64,000 nt of DNA from Deltaproteobacteria bacterium. GTDB taxonomy: Bacteria; Myxococcota_A; Polyangia; HGW-17; JAJRWW01. Numbering within the stretch: position 1 is the first letter of the stretch; the number at the start of each line of letters is the position of its first letter. The position numbers and the translations under genes were made by a program. The notes under the pieces are model-generated. The model saw only the letters and a program-made list of their open reading frames with translations. It was not told the DNA's origin and ran no database searches. This document shows, piece by piece, positions 10,703 through 22,945 of the stretch. Location of the stretch: NCBI GenBank assembly GCA_029938605.1, contig JAOZUO010000013.1:6462-70461 (forward strand), written 5' to 3'.

Positions 10703-12274
10703 ATGAGACGCTTTCTATTGTGCGGGATGATCATCGTCGTCGCGGCCGGGGCGGGGGCCTGCGACGCCGACAGCTCCACTGCCCTTGGTGACACCGAGAA
10801 CTGTACCAACGGCGCCGACGATGACGGGGATGGTGCCGTCGACTGCGGGGACGCCGATTGCCACGGCCACGCCTACTGTCTGGCCTACTCCGAGTACAAC
10901 TGCGACAACGGCGCGGACGACGACGGCGACGGCCTCTACGACTGCGACGATCCGGACTGCCAGCAGACGTCCGCGTGCGACCCCACCCGGGAGTGGCATT
11001 GCCACGACGGCGTGGACAACGACAGCGACGGCCGCACCGACTGCGACGACCCGGACTGCCTCGAAGCCTGCACGGAGCTCTGCGACGACGACGTGGACAA
11101 CGACAACGACGGCCAGATCGACTGCGCCGACTCCGACTGCTTCAGCGAGGAAGGCTGCCACGCCGGAGATGAGATCTGCCGCAACGGCGAAGACGACGAC
11201 GGCGACGATCTGACCGACTGCGACGACCCGGACTGCGCGGACCTGCCTACCTGCACTCCCGTGGAGATCTGCAACAACGATGGCGTGGACGACGACGACG
11301 ACGGCCTCGCCGACTGCGCCGACCCCGACTGCTTGGACAATCCCTACTGCCAAGAGCTGCTGTGCGACGACGGCGTGGACAACGACGCAAACGGCCTGGT
11401 GGACTGTGACGACGCCGTGTGCGTCGGCATGGCCGGCTGCATCCCCAGCCCCAACTGCGTCCCCTCAGAGCCGCTGACGTGCGGGGACATCATCGACGGC
11501 AGCACCGTCGGCCGCCTTAGCAACTTCGACACCTACCAATGCCTACCGGGCAGCTTCGTCGGCGGTGAGCGCTACTACCTCATTACGCCGGACCCCGGCC
11601 AGGCCGTCACCGTCGCGCTCAACGACTACTCATGGAACGAAGATCTGCGGCTCATCGTGTCGTCCACTAACGACTCGGCGGGCGGCTGCGACCCCTCCAA
11701 CCCCTGTACCATCTCGAGCGATACCATCGCCGCGGATCAGGAGGTGACAACCGACGTGGACTCCACCACCAACCTGTGGGTTATCGTCGACAGCGACACC
11801 GCGGGCGGCGGACTCTTCGATCTCGAGGTAGTCTGCTTGCCGTTGCACGAGTTGGACTGCGACGATGGATGGGATGACGACGGCGACGAGCTGATCGACT
11901 GCATGGATCCAGACTGCGCCAACACCGCAACCTGCTCATACACCTGGGCCGACGCCGGCGTCGAATGCCAGGACCCCACCGATTGTATCCCCTCGCCCAG
12001 TCACTTCTGTCGACAACCGCCGGGCAACCCCGGCGCCGAGGGCTTCTGCTCCCGGGAGTGCAGCACCCTCGGCGAACTGGATGGTCAGTGTGCCCCCGGC
12101 GACCCTGGTCTGCATGGCTACTGCTTCGGGGAAAACGGCGGTGGCGGCTTCTGCGGCTACCCCTGCGGCCCCGGCTTCGCCGGCATGTACCAGTGCCCCT
12201 CCGACTGGCACTGCATCAACCCCGTCGACGGCTCCATCACCAACATTGACTACGGCGTCTGCACGCCGAACTAG
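10703..12274 (+). CDS. Cys/Asp-rich repeat lipoprotein (CxNGxDDDxDGxxDCxDxDC repeats plus PPC-like domain)
   Basis: Lipobox AGAGAC; about 8 CxD/NGxDxDxDGxxDCxDxDC units; AGGAG RBS upstream. Confidence 0.85.
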   Translation: MRRFLLCGMIIVVAAGAGACDADSSTALGDTENCTNGADDDGDGAVDCGDADCHGHAYCLAYSEYNCDNGADDDGDGLYDCDDPDCQQTSACDPTREWHCHDGVDNDSDGRTDCDDPDCLEACTELCDDDVDNDNDGQIDCADSDCFSEEGCHAGDEICRNGEDDDGDDLTDCDDPDCADLPTCTPVEICNNDGVDDDDDGLADCADPDCLDNPYCQELLCDDGVDNDANGLVDCDDAVCVGMAGCIPSPNCVPSEPLTCGDIIDGSTVGRLSNFDTYQCLPGSFVGGERYYLITPDPGQAVTVALNDYSWNEDLRLIVSSTNDSAGGCDPSNPCTISSDTIAADQEVTTDVDSTTNLWVIVDSDTAGGGLFDLEVVCLPLHELDCDDGWDDDGDELIDCMDPDCANTATCSYTWADAGVECQDPTDCIPSPSHFCRQPPGNPGAEGFCSRECSTLGELDGQCAPGDPGLHGYCFGENGGGGFCGYPCGPGFAGMYQCPSDWHCINPVDGSITNIDYGVCTPN

Positions 12275-12288
12275 AAACACACCAAACC

Positions 12289-14358
12289 ATGCACCCGAAA
12301 ACGATCATCATGTTGACCATGGTCTGCCTGATCGGTTGGGCCGGTTGCAAAGAAGAGAAGCAGACCTGCCGAAGCGCGGCGAACCACTTCCTGCAGGTGC
12401 GTCCGGGGCTCGAGGTCGAGGGCGCGTCCATGCAGACCCCCGAGGCGCTCGCGGCCTACTGCGAAGAGACGCAAGCGTCGGCGGCTGTTATTGGCTGTAC
12501 TTTGCAACACGCAGCGTTCCAAACTTGTTTGGAGGGCGTGGAGCCCGCCATCGCCCCGGCATGGATCGACTTTTGCCAGTACGAGGTGGCGGCGCTGCAG
12601 GCCTGTCTGAGCGACACCCCATTCGAGTCCCTCTGTCACGACGGCCATAGTGACGACGATGACTCCCTCGTCGACTGCGCCGACGAGGACTGTGACGACT
12701 TCGAGACCTGCCAGCAGAGGTGGTCGCCCTGGAATTGGTATTTCCCGAACTCGTCCCGCAACGTGGACCTGCTGTTCGTCATCGACAACTCCGGATCCAT
12801 GGCCGGCGAGCAGGCCAACCTACGCGCGAGCTTCCCCGCGCTCATGGCGGAACTGAGAAACACGAACTCGGGCCTGCCCAACCTGCACATCGGCGTCACC
12901 ACCACCGATCTGGGCACGGGCATGTTCCAGATCACCTACTGCGAACAGGTGGGCGGCGAAGCCGGCAATCTGGTGACCGGAAGCTGCACCAACCCCTCCG
13001 GAGCACCGTACATTATCGACGTGGAGCCCGAGCCCTGCGAGATCACCAGGGAGCCGGACAACACCTGTACGTCCCACACCTGCACGCAGTCTGACTGCAT
13101 GCACGAGCTCGCCACGACCATCGTGGAAGACGCCACCACGGGCTGCCCGCGCTGCCGAAACTTCTCGGGCGAGACCCTGGAGGAGGTATTCTCCTGTATC
13201 GCCAGCCTGGGCACCATGGGCTGCACCTTCGAGCAGCCCCTGGAGGCCATGTACAAAGCTCTGGACTCCAGCAATTCGGCCAATACCGGGTTTGTGCGCG
13301 ATGCAGCAAACCTGGCAGTGATTCTGATCACCGACGAGGACGATTGCTCGGCCTCCGATCCCCAGCTTTTTGACAGCTCCCAGACTGACCTCGACTCCAC
13401 CCTGGGTCCGCTCTCGTCCTATCGCTGCTTCGAGTTTGGCGTCACCTGTGACATCAACTCCCGGACCCAACCGGGCGACCGACAAGACTGCGTGCCCCGG
13501 GAGGACGCCGAGGCTCTGCTGCATCCCATCAGCCGCTACTCCCAGTTCCTGAGATCCCTGAAATACCCCGAGCAACTTCTCCTCGCGGCCATCGCGGGCC
13601 CGGTCACCCCCAGTGACAGCGGCATCGGCCACAACGTGGTGGTGGATGAGGACCCCGAGAGCAACCCGCAGGTGCAATACAGCTGCTCCACGACGTCAGA
13701 CAGCGCGGTTCCCGCCATCCGGATCTTCAACCTCATCGCCGAACTCAACAGCGAGACCGACCTGGACGCCTGGGCCTACACCTCCATCTGCGCCGATGAC
13801 TACACGCCTTTTTTGGCGGGCGTCGGCGACAGGATCAGAAGCGGCCTCGACCAAAGTTGTCTCACCGTGCCGTTGGAGGGATGCGCCGATGTGGGCGTGG
13901 AGTTTGGCACCCCCCAGGCGTCTGTGACCTGCGCCATCAATGAGCGCTGTCTGGCCAATTGCCAGGTCGAGGACTTCTTCTGGCGTGGCACCGATGACGA
14001 AACACGGCAGGAAGTTCCCCCTTGTCTCGAGGTGATGTCCGATGGCTCCTTTGCCGCGGGCAACGTCGACCGGACCCTTGCCTACGCCTCCGGCCACCCC
14101 GCGCTCCGAGACACCGACCTACCGGTCTCCGCCTGCTGGCACATCATCTACAACGCCTACTGCTCCCGATCGAACTACGCGGAGCTGGTCATCTCCCGCC
14201 AGGAGAATCCGCCGCCCCGCTCCTTTGCCACCGTGGCCTGCTCCCTGATCTACCCTGACGAGCTCACCTGCGGCGACGGTCTGGACAATGACCAGGACTG
14301 CCTGGTGGACAGCGACGACCCCTGCTGCCAAGACGTCTCCACCTGCCACTGGAATTGA
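12289..14358 (+). CDS. VWA-domain lipoprotein, myxobacterial type
   Basis: Lipobox IGWAGC; MIDAS VDLLFVIDNSGSMAGEQANL; LHIGVTTTDLG; GCTFEQPLEA; LAVILITDEDDCS. Confidence 0.85.
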   Translation: MHPKTIIMLTMVCLIGWAGCKEEKQTCRSAANHFLQVRPGLEVEGASMQTPEALAAYCEETQASAAVIGCTLQHAAFQTCLEGVEPAIAPAWIDFCQYEVAALQACLSDTPFESLCHDGHSDDDDSLVDCADEDCDDFETCQQRWSPWNWYFPNSSRNVDLLFVIDNSGSMAGEQANLRASFPALMAELRNTNSGLPNLHIGVTTTDLGTGMFQITYCEQVGGEAGNLVTGSCTNPSGAPYIIDVEPEPCEITREPDNTCTSHTCTQSDCMHELATTIVEDATTGCPRCRNFSGETLEEVFSCIASLGTMGCTFEQPLEAMYKALDSSNSANTGFVRDAANLAVILITDEDDCSASDPQLFDSSQTDLDSTLGPLSSYRCFEFGVTCDINSRTQPGDRQDCVPREDAEALLHPISRYSQFLRSLKYPEQLLLAAIAGPVTPSDSGIGHNVVVDEDPESNPQVQYSCSTTSDSAVPAIRIFNLIAELNSETDLDAWAYTSICADDYTPFLAGVGDRIRSGLDQSCLTVPLEGCADVGVEFGTPQASVTCAINERCLANCQVEDFFWRGTDDETRQEVPPCLEVMSDGSFAAGNVDRTLAYASGHPALRDTDLPVSACWHIIYNAYCSRSNYAELVISRQENPPPRSFATVACSLIYPDELTCGDGLDNDQDCLVDSDDPCCQDVSTCHWN

Positions 14359-14436
14359 TCTCGCACGCTAGCGCTGGACATACTATGATGTGGTGGTGAG
14401 CGTAGTCTTAGACATTCTATAGCTTAGGAGCTGGAC

Positions 14437-15990
14437 ATGAGGCGCATATCTTTGGTGTTGGGGGTGGTTCTGGGGGTCGGCCTGGCGGGGTGTGGCGGGA
14501 TGGATTCCACCGCGCTGGGGGACTTGGAGAACTGCGTCAACGGGTCGGACGACAACGGGGATGGGCTGGCCGACTGCGAGGATCCGCAGTGCGTGGCTCA
14601 CGCGGCTTGTATCCCCATGCGGGAGATGAACTGCGCCAACGGGGTAGACGACGACGATGACGGCTTCATCGACTGCAGCGACCCCGACTGCCAGCAAAGC
14701 ATTGAATGTGGCGCGACCCGGGAGCTGAGCTGTCACGACGGTGTAGACAATGACTCAGACGGCTTCACCGACTGTGAGGACGACGACTGCGCCGAGGCCT
14801 GCACCGAAGTATGTAACGACGAAATCGACAACGACGGCGACCTCCTGGTGGACTGCTCCGACCCCGACTGTGCGGGGAAGGCGGGGTGTCCGGGGACCAC
14901 CGAAGTGTGCAGCAATGGAGTGGATGACGATGATGATGGCGACGTGGACTGCGAGGACTCCGACTGCGCCGGGCGGCCCATGTGTACGTCGGTGGAGCTC
15001 TGCAACACCGAGGCCGACGACGACAACGACGGGTTGGTCAACTGCGCCGATCCCGACTGCCTCCTGAGCCCCTACTGCAGGGAGGTCAACTGCTTGGACG
15101 GTCAAGACAACGACGGCGACCTCCAGGTGGACTGCGACGATCCGGACTGCCAGAACGCGCCGGAGTGTCAAGGGGGCACGCAGTGTCGACCGGCCACGCC
15201 CCTGCCCTGCGGCCAGTGGGTGGAGTCCACCACCGTGGGACGTCTGAACAACTTCAATGACTATGAGTGCCATCCCGACACCCTGAACGGCCCCGAGCGG
15301 TACTTCCAGTTTACCGCCGAGCGAGATCTATTCCTGGACCTGTATTTGGACGACTGGAACCTCAATGGACAGACCATGATCGCCAACAGCGGCGATCCCG
15401 TCACCGGTTGTGACCTCAACGGCGACTGCTACGCCGAAGACTACCCGGGGGATAACTTCCTCCTCCTGGAGATTAGCGAAGGCGAGACACTCTTTCTCAT
15501 TGTGGACGGCCCCGCGTCCACGCCCGGACCCTTTGACCTGGGGATGGAGTGCGTGCCCATGGACGAGGTGGGCCTGTGCGACGACGGCCAGAACAACGAC
15601 GAGTACTCGGACGGCCTCACGGACTGCTGGGACGACGACTGTCTGGGCGACCCGGTGTGTAACTACTGGGTGAGCGCCGGGATCTCCTGCACCGAGGCTT
15701 CAGAGTGCGCCCCGGGCGAGTTCTGTAGTGATGTATCTTTCCAGATGGCTGGGACCGAAGTCTCCTTCTGCACCCGCCACTGCTCTTCGGCGGGAGCGGT
15801 GGGCGGTGAGTGCCACACCGAATCCCTCGGCGACGGCGTCTGCAACGCCATCCAATCCAACGCTGGGCTCCGATGTGTGCTCCCCTGCTCCTCCGCCTTG
15901 GACCCATGCCCCTGGGGATCGGTCTGTACGGACATCATCTCAGGCAGCGAATCGACTCTGAACAGCGGCTACTGCCTACCGTACCAGTAG
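14437..15990 (+). CDS. Cys/Asp-rich repeat lipoprotein, paralog of 10703..12274
   Basis: Same layout and shared segments (DSTALGDxENCxNG, CHDGVDNDSDGxTDC, STVGRLxNF); lipobox GLAGC. Confidence 0.85.
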   Translation: MRRISLVLGVVLGVGLAGCGGMDSTALGDLENCVNGSDDNGDGLADCEDPQCVAHAACIPMREMNCANGVDDDDDGFIDCSDPDCQQSIECGATRELSCHDGVDNDSDGFTDCEDDDCAEACTEVCNDEIDNDGDLLVDCSDPDCAGKAGCPGTTEVCSNGVDDDDDGDVDCEDSDCAGRPMCTSVELCNTEADDDNDGLVNCADPDCLLSPYCREVNCLDGQDNDGDLQVDCDDPDCQNAPECQGGTQCRPATPLPCGQWVESTTVGRLNNFNDYECHPDTLNGPERYFQFTAERDLFLDLYLDDWNLNGQTMIANSGDPVTGCDLNGDCYAEDYPGDNFLLLEISEGETLFLIVDGPASTPGPFDLGMECVPMDEVGLCDDGQNNDEYSDGLTDCWDDDCLGDPVCNYWVSAGISCTEASECAPGEFCSDVSFQMAGTEVSFCTRHCSSAGAVGGECHTESLGDGVCNAIQSNAGLRCVLPCSSALDPCPWGSVCTDIISGSESTLNSGYCLPYQ

Positions 15991-16047
15991 CCGAGGTCCT
16001 GGCAACCGGGGCTTCGCGCCGTCCCGAAATTCACACCTTCAGGAGCG

Positions 16048-16075
16048 TTGACCTGCCCCGGCCCGCGACTATAAT
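16048..16075 (+). promoter_or_regulatory. Sigma70-type promoter of fusA paralog
   Basis: TTGACC-16 nt-TATAAT, 51 nt upstream of the ATG at 16127. Confidence 0.75.
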
Positions 16076-16126
16076 GCCGCAGAACTCAACCGCGCCCACG
16101 GGGGCCACGCTGCAGGGCCAATCGCC

Positions 16127-18160
16127 ATGGCGAAGATCGACCAGGTAAGAAATATCGGAATTGTGGCGCACATCGACGCCGGCAAGACCACAGTCACCGA
16201 ACGGTTTCTGTACTACTCCGGTCGCAGCCACAAGATCGGCGAGGTCCACGACGGCGAGGCCCAGATGGACTGGATGCCCCAGGAGCAGGAGCGCGGCATC
16301 ACCATCACCGCCGCCGCTACGACCCTGAGCTGGAAAAAACACGACCTGCACCTCATCGACACGCCCGGCCACGTGGACTTCACCATCGAGGTGGAGCGCT
16401 CCTTGCGGGTGCTCGACGGCGCTGTAGTGGTCTTTTGCGGCCGGGGCGGAGTAGAGCCCCAGTCCGAGACCGTGTGGGCCCAGGCTGACAAGTTCCAGGT
16501 GCCGCGCATCGCCTTTGTGAATAAGCTCGACCGGGTGGGCGCCCAGTTCGACACCGTGGTGGCGGAGATCCGCGAGAGGCTCGGCGCGAACCCGATCCCC
16601 GTGCAGCTGCCCATTGGCGAGGAGGGCGACTTCGCTGGGGTAGTGGACCTCATCGAGCGCAAGGCCTACCAGTGGACCGGCAAAGAAGAGGACATCCAGA
16701 CCGAGGTGGACATCCCCGCCGACCTGGTCGAGGCCGTGGACGCCGGCCGGGAGCAGCTGCTCGAAGCCGCGGCCGACTTCGACGACGACCTCGCTGAGCG
16801 GTACCTCGAGGGCGAGGAGATCACCCCCAAGGAGCTCCGCGCCGCCCTGCGGGCAGGCACCCTGGCCAACCGATGCGTGCCGGTGCTCTGCGGAGCGGCC
16901 CTGCGCAACCGCGGTATCCAACCCCTGCTCGACGCCGTGGTGCATTTTTTGCCGTCGCCCGCGGAGGTTGCCGAGGTGGAGGCCTTCATCCCGGGCACCG
17001 ACGAACGGGTCCTACAACAGCCCAAGGACAACAATCCACTGTGCGCCCTGGCCTTCAAGGTGGCCATGGAGCAGGGCCGCAAGATGGTGTTCTTCCGGGT
17101 GTACGCCGGGCGCATCAAACCCGGGGATGTGCTGTTCAACCCGCGGGCGGGCACCAGGGACAAGATCTCCCGGGTGCTCAAGATGCACGCCAACAAGCGC
17201 GAGCGGATCCAGGCCGCCGTGGCCGGGGACATCGCCGTAGGCATGGGCCTCAAGTCCGTGGGCACCGGCGACACCCTCTGCCAGTTCGATCATCCGTTGC
17301 AGCTAGAAGCCATCGACAGCCACGAGACGGTCATCTCTGTGGCAGTGGAGCCCAAGAACCTGCCCGAGAAGGACAAGATGGACTTCGGCCTGGCCAAGAT
17401 GGTGGAGGAGGATCCCACCTTCAGCGTACGGGAAGACGCCGAGACCGGCCAGACCCTCATCTCGGGAATGGGTGAGCTGCACCTGGAGATCATGACCGAC
17501 CGCCTCAACCGGGAGTACGGCATCTCCGTGCGTGTGGGCAAGCCCCAGGTGGTCTACCGCGAGACCGTCAAGGAGACGGCCACCGAGGAGTACCGCTTCG
17601 AGCGCAAGCAGGAGGAGGAGCGGGTCTTTGGTCACGCGCGCATCACCGTGTCGCCCCAGCCCCGGGGGTCGGACAACGTGGCCTTGGCGGAAATCAAAGC
17701 CGATCCACCGCCGCCCTCCGCACTGGTGGAGGCGGCCCTGGAGGGCATCCGGGAGGCGTTCCGAAGCGGGCCCCAAGGTGGTTATCCCATCCGGGACGTC
17801 AAGGCGGTGGTGACGGGCCTGGAGGTGGTGGAGGGATCCTCGGCGGTGGTGCCCTACAAGATCGCCGCGCAGGAGGCCTTCCGCAAGGCCATGCGCGGCG
17901 CCACGGTGCAGCTGCTCGAGCCGGTCATGGAAGTGGAGGTCACCACGCCCGAGGAGTCCATGGGTGAGGTCATCGGCGACCTGAACCAGCGCGGCGGCCG
18001 CATCGAGTCTTCGGAGTTCCGGGGCAACAAGCGCGTCATCCAGGCCAAGGTGCCCCTCAAGCAGATGTTCGGCTACTCCACGTCTCTGCGCTCACTCACC
18101 AAGGGCCGCGCGGTGTTCTCCATGCGGTTCTACGAGTTCGACACCGCCTCGGGCGATTGA
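16127..18160 (+). CDS. fusA: Elongation factor G paralog (standalone, outside the str operon)
   Basis: [67 protein letters not shown]. Confidence 0.95.
18075..18160 (+). repeat. Direct repeat copy 1: last 86 bp of fusA
   Basis: actccacgtctctgcgc...gacaccgcctcgggcgattga; the first 76 nt are identical to 21515..21590. Confidence 0.95.
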
Positions 18161-18276
18161 CGTACCGTCCCAGGGCCAGGGCCAGGCGTGGTCCGAGCCG
18201 ATATCACCCAGCCGAACCTCGAGGCGTTGTTGCATGAATCGAACAGACAACGGACCGAATCCATGGTTGTTCGCCC

Positions 18277-18374
18277 TCACGCAGCAACCTTCACCGATTC
18301 CGGCATCCCCAGCTCGGTCATACGATTGAGCACGTTGACCGTGATCATCGCCTCCCTCAACTGAGCCTCGAAGC
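18277..18374 (-). pseudogene. Remnant C-terminus of IS903-like transposase with a 1-nt frameshift
   Basis: RFEAQLREAMITVNVLNRMTELG/MPESVKVAA* aligns with the recalled IS903 end DYDGQVAEAMALVRALNKMTKAGMPESVRIA*; one G is missing at the LG/MP junction. Confidence 0.8.
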
Positions 18375-18432
18375 GGCCACACGCCGGGCTTTCCCGCTGG
18401 TCTTCGCCAAATGCCCTCGGAAAGCAAAAATG

Positions 18433-19044
18433 CTAGCTGCGAGCCCTTCCCCGGCGGAGGGCCATGGCGGTGAGCACCAGCGCCGCCGCGCCCAGGCCGA
18501 CGACCGGGATCCTCAGATCCCCCAGGAAGCGCGCGTCGAGGGTTCCCAGCCCGGCGCAGCCGCGGGCCACGCACTGTGCCACCACCGAGCCCCCGATGGT
18601 GGCGACCAGGGCGACGCCGAGCCAGGTAGCCAGCGCCAACACACCCCGTCGCGCCGCGACGAAGGTGGCGGACCAGATGCACAGGGTGAGCAGAGCCCCG
18701 GTGAGCGCCAACCAGACGTCAGTCGCGCCGTACACGAGTCGGCCGGTGCCCAGGCCGGCGCCCCAAAGGACCAGCCCGGCGGCCTGCGGCAGCAGCAGCG
18801 CACGGGTAACCGGGACCCCTGCTGGAGAGGCGCCGAGGGTGGAAGAGAACCGCTCGCGCCTCAGGGCGTCGGCCACGAGCACGGTCAGCAACGCCCAGAG
18901 CGGCGTGAGGGGAAGCCCGCGATTGGGGGCGTGGGCCATGTACCCCGCCGTACACAGCGCCAGGACAGGCACCGCCTGCACCAGGACACGCCAGCCCAGG
19001 CTGCTCACCGGGTGGCGGTCACTCTGTGCGTGTGTGCTCATCAC
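18433..19044 (-). CDS. Hypothetical multi-pass membrane protein (possible immunity protein)
   Basis: About 6 hydrophobic segments; the start overlaps the stop of the upstream lipoprotein (ATGA, 19041-19044). Confidence 0.6.
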   Translation of the reverse strand: MMSTHAQSDRHPVSSLGWRVLVQAVPVLALCTAGYMAHAPNRGLPLTPLWALLTVLVADALRRERFSSTLGASPAGVPVTRALLLPQAAGLVLWGAGLGTGRLVYGATDVWLALTGALLTLCIWSATFVAARRGVLALATWLGVALVATIGGSVVAQCVARGCAGLGTLDARFLGDLRIPVVGLGAAALVLTAMALRRGRARS

Positions 19045-21266
19045 GGGGGACAGTTGATGAAGCAGGTGATCCGGCAGGGATCACAGTACCAGTCCATGAA
19101 CCAGGCGATAAGCTTGACAATGAAATAGCCAAACATGATGGCCGCGCCAAAATAGACCGCCGTCACCAGTACCGCCACCACAAGCGGCGTTGTGGCGGAA
19201 AGCATGAGCATGGCGGCCAGCGCCCCGGCGAAGGTGATCCCCGCGCCAAGGTTGCCGATGAGGATGCCTTCGAGCTGATTCCAGTCCCCGTGCTTGACCA
19301 GCGCGCCGTCCAGCGAGGTGAGCTCCATCGACGGTGGGGGCTCCTCGCCGCGCAAGATGCGAGCCGCGCGGCCGGGGTTGTCCAGGATCCACGTCCGCAG
19401 CGGAGTCATGTCGGTGCCAGTGTCCACCTCGTATTGGTCCAGCCGGGCAACAATGGCCTGATCGCTGTAGTCCACGCTCAGGGTCTCGGTGGTCACCGAG
19501 CCCCCCACATCCGCGATGATCTCCACGGTCTGGGAATCCGTCGACCATACGAGGGTCGTAACGTCCCAATCCCCTGGGCCCTCCATCTGTACGGGGCGGT
19601 ACCGCTCGTCGAATGCGACACGGTAGACGTCGCCGTTGGCCAGAACGACGTGCATGCCGGACAGGCGGTCCTGATCTCGTTTCAGGGTCACCGAGTTGCC
19701 CGAGGCGGAGTCGTGAATGTAGGCGAGCTCGCTCTTGAACGGATCCGGCGAGGCGACCACGACGTCCACTGGAGGATCCGCCGCTTCCTGCATGGTGCCA
19801 AAGGGAACGAGCGAAAAAGAGTACTCGCCCTTCTCCCAGGTACCGTGTAGGTACCAGCTGTTGGCCAAGAGCTGTCCGCGCCAGGGGGAGGTCTGTCCCG
19901 GAGCCGCCTCGTCCCACCAGAAGCCCAAATACTGGTACCCGTTCCAGGTAGCCTCCACCCGATAGGTCGCGCCGTCGCTAGAGTGGTCGGTGATCTCCAA
20001 ACGACTTCCGTCTTGCACAATGACCGCGGACCCCAGGATGGGCTCCGGAATCCCGGATGGAGCATCGAACCAGTCCGCCGACAGGCTCGAGGCGTCACCC
20101 GTGAGCCACCCGGCGGGGGGCTCCACGGTGCGTTGCAGGGAGTGGTAGTATTCCTCCCAGCCATCGTAGCGACCCACGATGCGGGTATTGGACGAAGCCA
20201 TGTAGCCATGCCAGTTCGAAGAAACAGAGCCCCCCTGGCTCGTGTCGATGAAGCTCGTGCCATCCACTGTCTCGGGGCGAATGGAGCGGGTCAGCAGGCT
20301 GTCCAGGAAGGCCTCGTCCCGATGGTGCACGTACAGCACTTGCTCGTGTTGCACCACCACAGCGGCGTACCACTGCGGCAGATCCTGCTGATAGGTCTGA
20401 AAGCGTTCCAGCCACAGGCCGTTGAGCGGCGATGGCTGGGGCGCCGCCTCAAGGACCTCACACTGCTCGATATCCAGGGCCCATTCGTACCGGCAGACAT
20501 ACATGCGCTGCCCCTGCTGGAAGGATAAGGCGGTGAGCCCCGTACCCTGAATTCTCGGATCATCCGCCGAGTCCACGGTGCCGCTGTATCGACCGTCCTC
20601 GGGCCAGCCCCCGTCCGGGTCCAGGATGCTCAACAACGCCTGATTGCCGCTCCAACCGAAGTCCAGGGCAAGCAGGGCCGTGAGATCGCCATCGGCGGTG
20701 TGCCAGACACCAACCTGCTGTTGTCCGAAATGAACCACGCGGTGCAGCTGCAACATTTGACCATCGGCGAAGGTACCAGAGAGCAGAGCGACCGAGGTAT
20801 CCGCCTGCGCGAAGGTCACTGTCTGTGTTGAGCTCGCTCCCACGCTGTCACGCCACTGACCCACCAGCGCTCCATCTGCCCCCCTAGCCAACGTGAGCGA
20901 CGGCTGCCGGCCGTCGGCCAGCGTCACCGCCAACTGCGCCTCGTCCCCTGCGACGTCGGTGACCATCTCCCCAGAGCCCCAGCGGAGGTCCTGGGCCAGA
21001 TCCGCCCGCGCCACGACCCACCAGCCATCTAGCGGCACTAAGGCCACGAGCGGGTGGTCGGGATCACACACGTCGCCGATCCCGTCGCCATCCACATCCG
21101 CCTGATCGCCGTTAGACCGCGCCGGACAGTTGTCCTCACTGTCCGGAACGCCGTCGCCGTCCCCATCCGTTACGCTCCCATGGGTTCCCGACGGACACCC
21201 GGCAGCTGCCATCGAAAAGCCCAGCAGCATCCCCAGCGCCTTGCGCTTCGTATAGCTGTAACTCAT
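19041..21266 (-). CDS. Lipoprotein with thrombospondin type-3 Ca-binding repeat, Trp-rich beta modules and hydrophobic C-terminal helices
   Basis: ATG at 21266 with GAGGGAG RBS; lipobox AAAGC; DGDGDGVPDSEDNCP..NGDQADVDGDGIGDVCD; long hydrophobic C-terminal stretch, then Cys-rich end. Confidence 0.8.
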   Translation of the reverse strand: MSYSYTKRKALGMLLGFSMAAAGCPSGTHGSVTDGDGDGVPDSEDNCPARSNGDQADVDGDGIGDVCDPDHPLVALVPLDGWWVVARADLAQDLRWGSGEMVTDVAGDEAQLAVTLADGRQPSLTLARGADGALVGQWRDSVGASSTQTVTFAQADTSVALLSGTFADGQMLQLHRVVHFGQQQVGVWHTADGDLTALLALDFGWSGNQALLSILDPDGGWPEDGRYSGTVDSADDPRIQGTGLTALSFQQGQRMYVCRYEWALDIEQCEVLEAAPQPSPLNGLWLERFQTYQQDLPQWYAAVVVQHEQVLYVHHRDEAFLDSLLTRSIRPETVDGTSFIDTSQGGSVSSNWHGYMASSNTRIVGRYDGWEEYYHSLQRTVEPPAGWLTGDASSLSADWFDAPSGIPEPILGSAVIVQDGSRLEITDHSSDGATYRVEATWNGYQYLGFWWDEAAPGQTSPWRGQLLANSWYLHGTWEKGEYSFSLVPFGTMQEAADPPVDVVVASPDPFKSELAYIHDSASGNSVTLKRDQDRLSGMHVVLANGDVYRVAFDERYRPVQMEGPGDWDVTTLVWSTDSQTVEIIADVGGSVTTETLSVDYSDQAIVARLDQYEVDTGTDMTPLRTWILDNPGRAARILRGEEPPPSMELTSLDGALVKHGDWNQLEGILIGNLGAGITFAGALAAMLMLSATTPLVVAVLVTAVYFGAAIMFGYFIVKLIAWFMDWYCDPCRITCFINCPP

Positions 21267-21351
21267 GACGTCGCACTCCCTCGTGTGAGCAAACCAATGT
21301 CTGCGATTCCAATACTTTGTGTAAATGAACCCAGCACCCAAAGCCACCGCA

Positions 21352-21379
21352 ATCTTACCCAGCCGTGCGAGGGGGTCAA
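21352..21379 (-). promoter_or_regulatory. Sigma70-type promoter inside the cassette driving the lipoprotein gene
   Basis: On the minus strand TTGACC-16 nt-TAAGAT. Confidence 0.6.
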
Positions 21380-21514
21380 GCCGTTGGGTGCCCCATACCA
21401 GGCAGGCCCATCAGGCGGATCACCGATGCTCATCGGTCATCGGTCAACGAAATGCAGGATCGCCGGGATACGGCGACGACTTCAAACTGAACGAGGTCGC
21501 CGTGCACCAACGCC

Positions 21515-21600
21515 ACTCCACGTCTCTGCGCTCACTCACCAAGGGCCGCGCGGTGTTCTCCATGCGGTTCTACGAGTTCGACACCGCCTCCGGCGATTAG
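21515..21600 (+). repeat. Direct repeat copy 2 of fusA 3-prime end (TAG stop)
   Basis: Differs from copy 1 only at 21591 (C vs G) and the stop codon (TAG vs TGA); offset 3440 bp. Confidence 0.95.
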
Positions 21601-22945
21601 CCAGCAGCAAGATCAGCACCAGGATCAGCACCAGCGCCCGCCCGGACGCGCTCGACGGCCCAGACGTGCCACATGCGCAGCCCCGTGGATCGGCGCCGTT
21701 CTCCGGACCCCCATCCGGGCCCAGACCCCCGTCCTCATCTACGCCCGCATCACTCGAGACGCCGGTAACCACCACGGTCCAAGAGCGCTCCGAGGCGAGA
21801 GCGTGGTCGGGATCGTTGCGCACCCAGGTCCCGTCGTCGGTGACCTCACAGCGCAGGTCGTGGGTCCCGTTTTCCGGGCCGACCATGGCCAAATCCAGCG
21901 TCAGCGCCGTTCCGGAGCCCACCTCCTGGTCCCCCAGCCACCAGGTCACCGTCTGGCCCGCGTCGCCCCCAAGCGCCACCGTGGCCACTTCGAATGGCAC
22001 CGGATACGTGGCCGGAGCTCCCCGGTCCAGGGTCACCGGAGACTCGGGCGGCGAGACAGTGTCGATGGGATCCACCCGGTCGTACACCGACAGCACCAGC
22101 GCTTCGGCGCACACGGCGCAGTAGTCGTATTCCAAGCTGCCCATCATGCAGTGGGGCGCCGGGCGATAGATTCCGGTCTCCAGGTACCGTGCGCCCTCAT
22201 AAGCCCCTACGGGCAGATAGTCAGTCACCGCGTCCGACAGCAGGGTGGGCAGCGGCGTGGTGGGCTCCACCCAGGCGTTCCACTTGAGCTGGTCGAAGGC
22301 AAAATCGAAGTCCACATTGGGCTCGTTGTCCCCCGGCGTAAATCCCGGCAAGGGGTCGGTGTACTCGTCGGCCAGGCCGGCGAAGCTGTGGCCGAGCTCA
22401 TGGATAAGGATCCCCACCGCCACATCCGTTGCGCTCACCGTGGCCACGGATCCGCCGCTGCCACCGTAGAGCGTGTCATTGACAAGGACCACCACCAGGT
22501 CCACCTCCGGCAGCAGATCCGCCGCGACGCTGATGGCGAGAGCTTCGTTGACCACCAGCAGCCGCTCCACGCCCAGGTAGTCGTAGGTGGCGTCTAAGTA
22601 GGTGTCCACGTACAGCCCCGCCGAAGGGTGGTCAGCCCCCGACTCCACCGACTCGGTGACGATGCGGTAGAGGTTGAAGGCCCCCCGATAGGAGGCCCAG
22701 GGCTCGGTCGCCAATAGCCCGCCCAGCAGGTTGTCCACGTGGTTCCGAAACGCTTCCCCTTCCGCGGCCCGGTACCCCTCACCGATGACGACCAGATCGA
22801 TACGATTGTCCGCCGGGCCGGTGTTCTCCACCGTCTCAAGGGTGTTGACGGCCCGGGCGGAGGCGGGGTCCACCCACTCCCACACCCCGAACACGCCCAG
22901 AACGACGACCACACCGACGACCAACACAGTGCCCAGCCGGGTCAC
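21536..22945 (-). CDS. Peptidase M64 (IgA peptidase-like) zinc metalloprotease with MYXO-CTERM-like tail
   Basis: RIDLVVIGEGY, YGGSGG, HELGHSFAGLADEY, GAYEGA, IYRP..CMM; tail GCACG..ALVLILVLILLLANRRRR. GTG start at 22945 overlaps the upstream TGA. Confidence 0.88.
   Translation of the reverse strand: MTRLGTVLVVGVVVVLGVFGVWEWVDPASARAVNTLETVENTGPADNRIDLVVIGEGYRAAEGEAFRNHVDNLLGGLLATEPWASYRGAFNLYRIVTESVESGADHPSAGLYVDTYLDATYDYLGVERLLVVNEALAISVAADLLPEVDLVVVLVNDTLYGGSGGSVATVSATDVAVGILIHELGHSFAGLADEYTDPLPGFTPGDNEPNVDFDFAFDQLKWNAWVEPTTPLPTLLSDAVTDYLPVGAYEGARYLETGIYRPAPHCMMGSLEYDYCAVCAEALVLSVYDRVDPIDTVSPPESPVTLDRGAPATYPVPFEVATVALGGDAGQTVTWWLGDQEVGSGTALTLDLAMVGPENGTHDLRCEVTDDGTWVRNDPDHALASERSWTVVVTGVSSDAGVDEDGGLGPDGGPENGADPRGCACGTSGPSSASGRALVLILVLILLLANRRRRCRTRRTAWRTPRGPW

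Follow-up and report, generated by a model that had tools for sequence, protein, structure and literature searches.

An insertion-sequence-derived cassette and a duplicated EF-G gene end between convergent EF-G and M64 peptidase genes of an uncultured marine Myxococcota

The EF-G/M64 locus and its duplicated gene end

The stretch of DNA analyzed here (the window, 64,000 nt of contig JAOZUO010000013.1 in assembly GCA_029938605.1, from a member of the Polyangia) contains an intact gene for elongation factor G (EF-G) and, converging on it, a gene for an M64 peptidase, the two held apart by a 3,440-nt insert. The insert comprises a 27-nt scrap of an M64 anchor, a further 35-nt scrap, and a 3,292-nt cassette (18223-21514) bounded by the termini of an insertion sequence (IS), and where the cassette ends a second copy of the EF-G 3' end begins (Table 1). 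A repeat search returned a single strong direct repeat within 15-24 kb (18072-18158 against 21512-21598; 87 nt, 2 mismatches, spacing 3440), and inspection of the sequence set the homologous duplication at 18075-18160 and 21515-21600, that is, 86 nt including the stop codons. These tail copies are identical over their first 76 nt (18075-18150), and their sole differences are G18151/C21591, which is synonymous (both Ser codons), and a stop codon that is TGA in one and TAG in the other. A preliminary description of this DNA had reported the same arrangement, the last 86 bp of fusA recurring 3440 bp further on with one substitution and the TGA/TAG swap, and both the repeat search and our reading of the sequence confirm it. 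The dinucleotide GC present at 18072-73 and at 21512-13 was considered as part of the repeat and rejected as coincidental, the bases at copy 2 being the end of the IS terminus (...CAACGCC). There is no EF-G sequence upstream of tail copy 2.

It is from the relatives of the window genome, chosen as EF-G homologues of 77-92% identity together with members of the same cluster whose contigs were examined, that the nature of this separation becomes clear. In six of them (L001, L002/L003, L005/L006, L023/L024, L025 and L071; loci are designated L and metagenome runs X throughout) the site is empty, with EF-G and M64 convergent and overlapping by 4-65 nt. Homology of the relatives to the window ends at 18156-18161 and restarts at 21512-21515 (blastn), and from tail copy 2 onward they align without a break into M64; the 3,440 nt between the two genes in the window are therefore a true insertion. 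This bears out the earlier proposal of an insertion that leaves the entered gene intact, for which an uninterrupted site in related genomes, EF-G directly meeting the M64 gene, had been named as a check. In the window M64 overlaps tail copy 2 convergently by 65 nt, its last 21 codons being antisense to that copy; the same overlap is present in L001, L002, L005 and L023, and the convergent overlap of the 3' ends (~65 nt) is the ancestral arrangement.

The window comes from a hydrothermal-vent metagenome, and one run from it, X1, contains 99% of the window's sampled words. Metagenome runs were compared as k=31 contigs, by which a 76-nt identical stretch is not bridgeable, and the X1 contigs break inside the repeat. 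Single contigs from other samples of the same study, each with 0 differences, bridge the two sides: one (17936-18276) runs from the EF-G body through the tail, with G18151, and TGA to the IS end, and another (21283-21596) runs from the cassette into the tail and includes the copy-2-specific C21591. In X1 the shared 76-nt unitig has a depth of 46, about twice that of its neighbors (22-27). Given that the bridging contigs from other samples show 0 differences, the integrated form is real, and the misassembly that had been named as a caveat is answered both by these contigs and by the doubled unitig depth.

Table 1. Features at the EF-G/M64 locus, in window coordinates
Feature	Position	Strand	Remarks
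EF-G gene (fusA in the preliminary description)	16127..18160	+	Intact, 677 aa; Pfam GTP_EFTU, D2, EFG_III, EFG_IV, EFG_C
Tail copy 1	18075..18160	+	Last 28 EF-G codons and TGA; final 10 nt (G18151, TGA) are the X2-type allele
Remnant of M64 MYXO-CTERM anchor 3' end	18161..18187	-	27 nt, X2-type allele; antisense ..ALALGRYV
Scrap Y35	18188..18222		35 nt; fragment of conserved sequence that travelled with the IS end
IS5-family (IS903-group) 3'-terminal 150 nt	18223..18372	-	Terminal inverted repeat GGCGTTGTTGCATGAATCG at 18223-18241
Transposase remnant	18277..18372	-	Last 31 codons and stop, ..FEAQLREAMITVNVLNRMTELGMPESVKVAA*; IS903B residues 293-323, 58% identity
Passenger gene 2	18433..19044	-	203-aa multi-pass membrane protein; 73% GC, no family match
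Passenger gene 1	19041..21266	-	741-aa lipoprotein: lipobox (..AAGC), thrombospondin type-3 repeats (Pfam TSP_3), large body, hydrophobic Cys-rich C-terminus
Predicted sigma-70-like promoter	21352..21379	-	TTGACC-16 nt-TAAGAT, upstream of passenger operon; consensus match only, 1 site against 0.3 expected
Other IS terminus	21499..21514	+	Inside-out GCCGTGCACCAACGCC; 15/16 identical to family right-end consensus GCCGTGCAACAACGCC; adjoins tail copy 2
Tail copy 2	21515..21600	+	Orphan 86-nt EF-G 3' end, TAG stop
M64 peptidase gene with MYXO-CTERM anchor	21536..22945	-	Pfam Peptidase_M64; TIGR03901 MYXO-CTERM

Composition of the insert

Both limits of the cassette are termini of one IS family. Searching JGI metagenomes for the motif NRMTELGMPE yielded 45 loci of this IS clade, whose right ends read ...TGCAACAACGCC with unrelated flanks beyond, and whose full-length copies, 1.1-1.2 kb long, have left ends GGCGTTG(G/T)TGCAT. 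The cassette begins at 18223 with GGCGTTGTTGCATG, and its reverse complement begins at 21514 with GGCGTTGGTGCACG; these match the 45 loci as well as L049, L062, L069 and L070. The reverse complement of 21499-21514 (GGCGTTGGTGCACGG) has its counterpart at the left ends of full-length copies, namely GGCGTTGGTGCATGG in L049 and GGCGTTGGTGCATAA in L062, and at 18223 the window has GGCGTTGTTGCATGAATCGAAC in the place where IS903 has GGCTTTGTTGAATAAATCGAAC. In runs X5, X6 and X8, related IS copies match the window over precisely 18223-18372 and continue past 18372 into transposase sequence that has no counterpart in the window; for the opposite side of the cassette (21440-21514) no other IS copy was found in the runs at at least 80%, except in one X7 contig. 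Placement of the transposase remnant was by tblastn (18280-18372), Pfam and NCBIfam having given no placement for the 48-aa fragment, and more than 5,000 plasmid records carry a match to such a C-terminus. The rest of the transposase is absent throughout the 64-kb window in a tblastn search with the IS903B transposase.

The open reading frames within the cassette are a lipoprotein gene and a membrane-protein gene, and none encodes a transposase. By these sequence features, 18223-21514 is an element of the mobile insertion cassette (MIC) type, an IS5-family (IS903-group) shell in which the transposase, apart from its last 31 codons, has been replaced by an operon for a lipoprotein and a membrane protein. 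The lipoprotein, passenger gene 1, belongs to a very small family of about eight full-length homologues (31-62% identity), which occupy other genomic places in relatives; a small multi-pass membrane protein follows every one of them (e.g. in L008 and L009), and their loci are without IS ends or EF-G tails. NCBIfam matches to the lipoprotein are confined to its thrombospondin type-3 repeats, and PADLOC returned nothing for the passenger proteins.

The cassette is probably stranded and now looks immobile, because only short remnants of its IS occur at matching depth in the source sample; no intact cognate IS is present in the 64-kb window. X1 contigs of 2,899 and 840 nt hold a second, 71-nt IS remnant (equivalent to 18264-18334) with other flanks and at the depth of the window genome, which suggests that there are more decayed copies of this IS elsewhere in the genome. 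Among the metagenomic family members, several (L027, L048, L059 and L061) repeat the terminal 13-mer ATGCA[A/C]CAACGCC once or twice more, in tandem, immediately beyond the IS right end. A flank resembling the EF-G tail ('GCTACTCCGCGT') beside the IS in L062 was also considered; it does not lie in an EF-G gene, and so target specificity is not claimed here.

The EF-G stop and the cassette are 62 nt apart, and the first part of this interval has a match in X2, a ~5x cold-seep metagenome with a strain whose EF-G and M64 are ~96.6% identical to those of the window. A 549-nt contig from X2 runs from the tail (from 18097) through TGA, the 27 nt of 18161-18187 (1 difference) and 53 other nt into M64 (from 21669), and its minus-strand translation gives an intact anchor; 18161-18187 is thus a remnant of an X2-type M64 3' end. 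The remaining 35 nt (Y35) recur in contigs from X1, X3, X5, X7 and X8 that match 18186/9-18222 without interruption, extend on either side into sequence of their own and part from the window exactly at 18222/18223, one X8 contig being identical at 34/34 positions and an X1 contig of genome-like depth (24) differing at 3/37. Y35 is a fragment of a conserved sequence that formerly harbored the IS, and two of its reading frames are open (..HSRRVVRADITQPNLDPILDL.. and ..EIQNWIEVRLGDIGSDH..); an exact scan of JGI metagenomes for it found nothing, and blastn against plasmids gave chance-level matches only. Rfam found nothing in 17900-21800, and there is no tRNA or other RNA gene at the site. Of the two joints that bound the scrap and cassette, the one at 18187/18188 is illegitimate, with a 2-nt GC microhomology, and lies 27 nt beyond the EF-G stop, and the one at 21514/21515 falls inside EF-G codon 650, exactly at the IS terminus, from which it appears to be transposase-made.

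Hybrid alleles, exchange between strains and alternative origins

The tail copies part company at their 3' ends. Copy 1 ends in ..CTCGGGCGATTGA followed by CGTACC.., as in X2 (G at 18151, TGA), and all relatives other than X2 have ..CCTCCGGCGA.. at the end of EF-G. Copy 2 ends in ..CTCCGGCGATTAG followed by CCAGCAGCAAGATCAGC.., which nearly equals the remnant and anchor beside M64 in L004, and this end (C21591, TAG), with everything downstream, belongs to the allele type of L004, L001 and L005. Since the copies are identical to the left of 18151/21591 and then follow two alleles, a recombination breakpoint lies inside the 76-nt stretch. In the X2-type source allele the duplication continues for 27 nt beyond the stop and reaches into the antisense M64 anchor. 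X2 contains the same joint of cassette end and tail as the window (AACTAAACGAGGTCGCCGTGCACCAACGCC followed by ACTCC...), and its contig graph leads from this joint to the tail, TGA, the X2-type anchor and M64 at an equal depth of 6.3. Between X2 and the window the cassette differs at 22/3,044 nt (99.3% identical) and the flanks at 85/2,499 nt (96.6%; Fisher p = 4e-13), so that the cassette, being far less diverged than its flanks, has been exchanged between the X2 and window lineages after they had diverged.

We consider it likely that, after a duplicative entry, homologous recombination carried the cassette together with a piece of the EF-G tail between strains, the crossover having fallen inside the tail. 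In an X2-type genome, the foreign Y35 scrap and the cassette would have become fixed with their left end 27 nt past the EF-G stop and with the IS end joined inside codon 650. This first event would have duplicated 113 nt (86 nt of tail and 27 nt beyond it), whereby both EF-G and the M64 end stayed whole. The most economical route to it would combine the arrival of foreign DNA bearing the cassette, a local transposase-made joint between one IS end and the EF-G tail, and either unequal exchange or end joining. Known reactions would suffice for the exact product if the cassette made a local hop and sister copies then exchanged unequally; a template switch, or one-ended transposition combined with end joining, would be equally compatible. 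The tail end and cassette would then have entered the window lineage, with its L004-type M64 anchor, via RecA-type recombination with one crossover in the 76 nt. Entry may have been through a looped-out circle of 3,440 nt that integrated in the Campbell manner, or through a double crossover of linear DNA; the two would leave the same product and are indistinguishable by our data. Given such an entry through the tail, the duplicated tail would be a recombination scar and a homology arm, not a recombinase site. The preliminary description had already proposed homologous (Campbell-type) recombination as one way in, and the hybrid-allele pattern of the copies fits a crossover within the tail.

The joint between EF-G and M64 holds other sequence in other genomes. 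In L004 (positions 12035-17546), where EF-G belongs to the same 90% cluster, a different 5.5-kb insert lies between EF-G and M64, with a thiamine pyrophosphate (TPP) riboswitch, thiS-thiG-thiH-thiE, a 180-aa PD-(D/E)XK nuclease and a 521-aa protein with faint PPR/TPR and Toprim matches; the gene for the latter was considered as a paralogue of the gene upstream of EF-G, and comparison led us to reject this. The L004 insert has 58.7% GC, against 66-69% in its flanks, and is flanked by a ~22-nt imperfect duplication (GCCTCYGGCGAYTARCCAGC, 3 mismatches) extending over the EF-G stop and over the Asn-Arg-Arg-Arg with which the M64 anchor ends; it contains no integrase and no IS termini of the window cassette's family. 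In L007 (2068-2350; EF-G 90.7% identical at the nucleotide level) and in X5, a long low-complexity stretch of the GCCTCC type takes the place of the M64 anchor after the EF-G stop, the L007 contig ending 283 nt past the stop. From L004, L007 and X5, the joint is variable in the clade. The simplest reading of this variability is a survival filter, in which only those insertions that duplicate the overlap keep both overlapping genes intact. A bolder one, which we regard as doubtful, is a recurrent insertion hotspot in this Polyangia clade, at which insertions would survive only if duplicative, with the duplicated EF-G tail acting as a portable, integrase-free 'att' through which circles spread between strains by RecA only. 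If true, a dead cassette with 76-113 nt of a highly conserved gene end could loop out and enter the same site again in strains several per cent diverged, with no mobility gene.

It is important to weigh these events against other histories that would leave a similar trace. Tail copy 2 might be the last remnant of a much longer duplication, a second EF-G copy, partial or whole, beside M64 that came with the integration of a large homologous fragment, or with a tandem duplication having foreign DNA at its joint, and that was trimmed to 86 nt by an IS-mediated adjacent deletion. Adjacent deletions of the IS903 type leave an edge exactly at the IS terminus, and this is where the left edge of copy 2 lies; the lack of a target-site duplication and the foreign Y35 at the other joint would likewise be in keeping with such a history. 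We nevertheless find it unlikely, in that a longer second copy occurs in no relative or read set, the identical joint of IS and tail in X2 would put the trimming before the split or the transfer, and trimming by itself leaves the allele switch within the tail unexplained. Less probable still is a decayed integrase-type island, with the 86-nt repeats as attL/attR at the EF-G 3' end, a tail copy brought in by the element itself, and an integrase that has been lost or acts in trans. Direct repeats at the 3' end of a conserved gene, with that gene restored, are what such an island would produce, and the different insert of L004 sits at the same joint, also with a short repeat spanning the EF-G stop. 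The limits of the window repeat, however, are not those of an att identity block: upstream it stops, to the base, at the IS terminus, and downstream it stops at the allele switch, the identity in the X2-type allele being 27 nt longer. The attL/attR-like pattern of the preliminary description thus does not hold, in contrast to its observation that no recombinase lies between the copies; Pfam and NCBIfam scans detected neither a tyrosine nor a serine recombinase among the open reading frames between or beside the repeats. The L004 insert is equally without an integrase, its repeat (22 nt, 3 mismatches) has other limits, and the site is without a tRNA or other RNA gene. In the literature we found only multilocus sequence typing uses of fusA and none of it as an island target, and the present case does not establish the EF-G 3' end as one.

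There is also a trivial explanation, in which a strain-variable region was mis-threaded through the 76-nt repeat during assembly and the true arrangement is an empty site with a separate replicon or circle. The window is a contig assembled from a metagenome, the k=31 contigs of the source run end within the repeat, and its four arms are uneven in depth (15.4-27.4). This explanation is nonetheless extremely improbable: the zero-difference contigs from two other samples of the study cover EF-G, tail, TGA and IS end on one side and cassette and tail on the other, the depth of the cassette (21.9) equals chromosomal depth, and the diagnostic single-nucleotide differences pair as the integrated form predicts. 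Returning to transfer by recombination through the tail, several observations weigh against it. The 9-bp target-site duplication is absent (GAACCTCGA at 18214-18222, ACTCCACGT at 21515-23), which means that the cassette did not reach its present position by simple two-ended transposition; its left flank belongs to the foreign 35-nt scrap. The length of 9 bp is itself assumed from IS903, as the metagenome contigs with five full-length members of the family show no visible target duplications. In the source run, no IS sequence at matching depth was an intact cognate copy, and only the second, 71-nt remnant appeared. We infer the origin of the first 113-nt duplication from its product, not from direct observation. 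In X2, coverage is missing at the left junction (17955-18074 and 18188-18286), the tail also leads into a second branch (CTAATGACCGG..., depth 3.6), and the run may mix strains. Finally, the insert in L004, with its short duplication, hints at a process linked to the site.

Flanking genes and comparison with known systems

The EF-G gene was called fusA in the preliminary description. The protein is an intact EF-G by Pfam and by NCBIfam TIGR00484 (846.5 bits, cut-off 659.4), of which it is a full five-domain equivalog, and its length matches that of relatives of 74-92% identity; an exact look-up with the window EF-G returned no entry. The window gene does not, however, lie in the rpsL-rpsG-fusA-tuf context (str operon) of a housekeeping copy. 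In the window and in all relatives its neighbors are secreted proteins with acidic disulfide repeats and M64, rpsG and tuf not being adjacent. Outside the str-operon context, the gene may encode an EF-G paralogue. The two genes upstream (12289-15990) encode secreted proteins rich in acidic double-disulfide repeats; the 517-aa protein upstream of EF-G has 7 repeats of NF033662, and one of the two proteins gives a faint MIDAS-adhesin match. On the other side of the insert, the M64 gene starts at a GTG (22945) preceded by a Shine-Dalgarno sequence. An alignment of M64 proteins shows their last ~15 residues to be conserved among relatives only as the antisense of the EF-G tail, and in L004 and L025 these terminal ~15 residues are dispensable. 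In genome contigs, a search with M64 as the sole query found no relative, and one with the M64 alignment gave only distant M64 genes from other phyla (38-46% identity), none of them beside EF-G.

At this locus accessory genes are wedged between two overlapping, essential-looking gene ends, neither of which is damaged. By serving as a homology arm, a conserved gene end would still allow an IS-derived cassette that is itself immobile to pass between strains. In annotation, orphan 3' gene fragments beside IS termini should be read as recombination scars, as opposed to att sites or pseudogenes of a second gene copy. The principle is already known, and the value of the case is that of a well-documented natural example in an uncultured marine Myxococcota.

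MICs, with MIC231 of Bacillus cereus, derived from IS231, as their prototype, are among the IS-related objects treated in ISfinder/ISsaga (PMC3129680). The window cassette shares with them IS-family terminal inverted repeats at both ends, the lack of a transposase of its own, passenger genes and, in principle, mobilization in trans. Unlike them it derives from the IS5 family (IS903 group), resides in a metagenome-assembled Myxococcota genome and keeps a transposase remnant of 31 codons; it has no flanking target-site duplication, 35 nt of its former flank remain attached, and the cognate intact IS was not found in the sample. With IS903 and IS903B themselves it shares termini that begin with GGC and resemble GGCTTTGTTGAATAAATCG (in the window GGCGTTGTTGCATGAATCG), a transposase C-terminus of the form ..LNRMT..GMPESV..A (IS903B, 58% over 31 residues), and, among its full-length relatives, a size of 1.1-1.2 kb. 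It differs from IS903 in belonging to a distant environmental clade, in being a mere shell around its cargo, and in the absence of the typical 9-bp duplication.

ICESt1 and ICESt3, at fda, are examples of integrative elements whose target is the 3' end of a protein gene, which they restore. As with elements of that type, the end of the target gene in the window is duplicated as direct repeats and the gene is intact; the window insert, by contrast, has no integrase, its limits are set by an IS terminus and an allele switch, and it would have formed by homologous and illegitimate recombination. There is also a likeness to homology-facilitated illegitimate recombination, reportedly described by de Vries and Wackernagel in 2002, and to Campbell-type single-crossover integration: there is one homologous anchor (the EF-G tail) and one illegitimate joint, and integration of a circle duplicates the homology. 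Here, in contrast, the process is deduced from natural variation, the anchor is only 76-86 nt long, and one joint appears to have been made by a transposase. The insert is of known kinds, an IS-derived cargo cassette combined with a gene-end duplication made by recombination, and represents ordinary genome plasticity with a neat detail.

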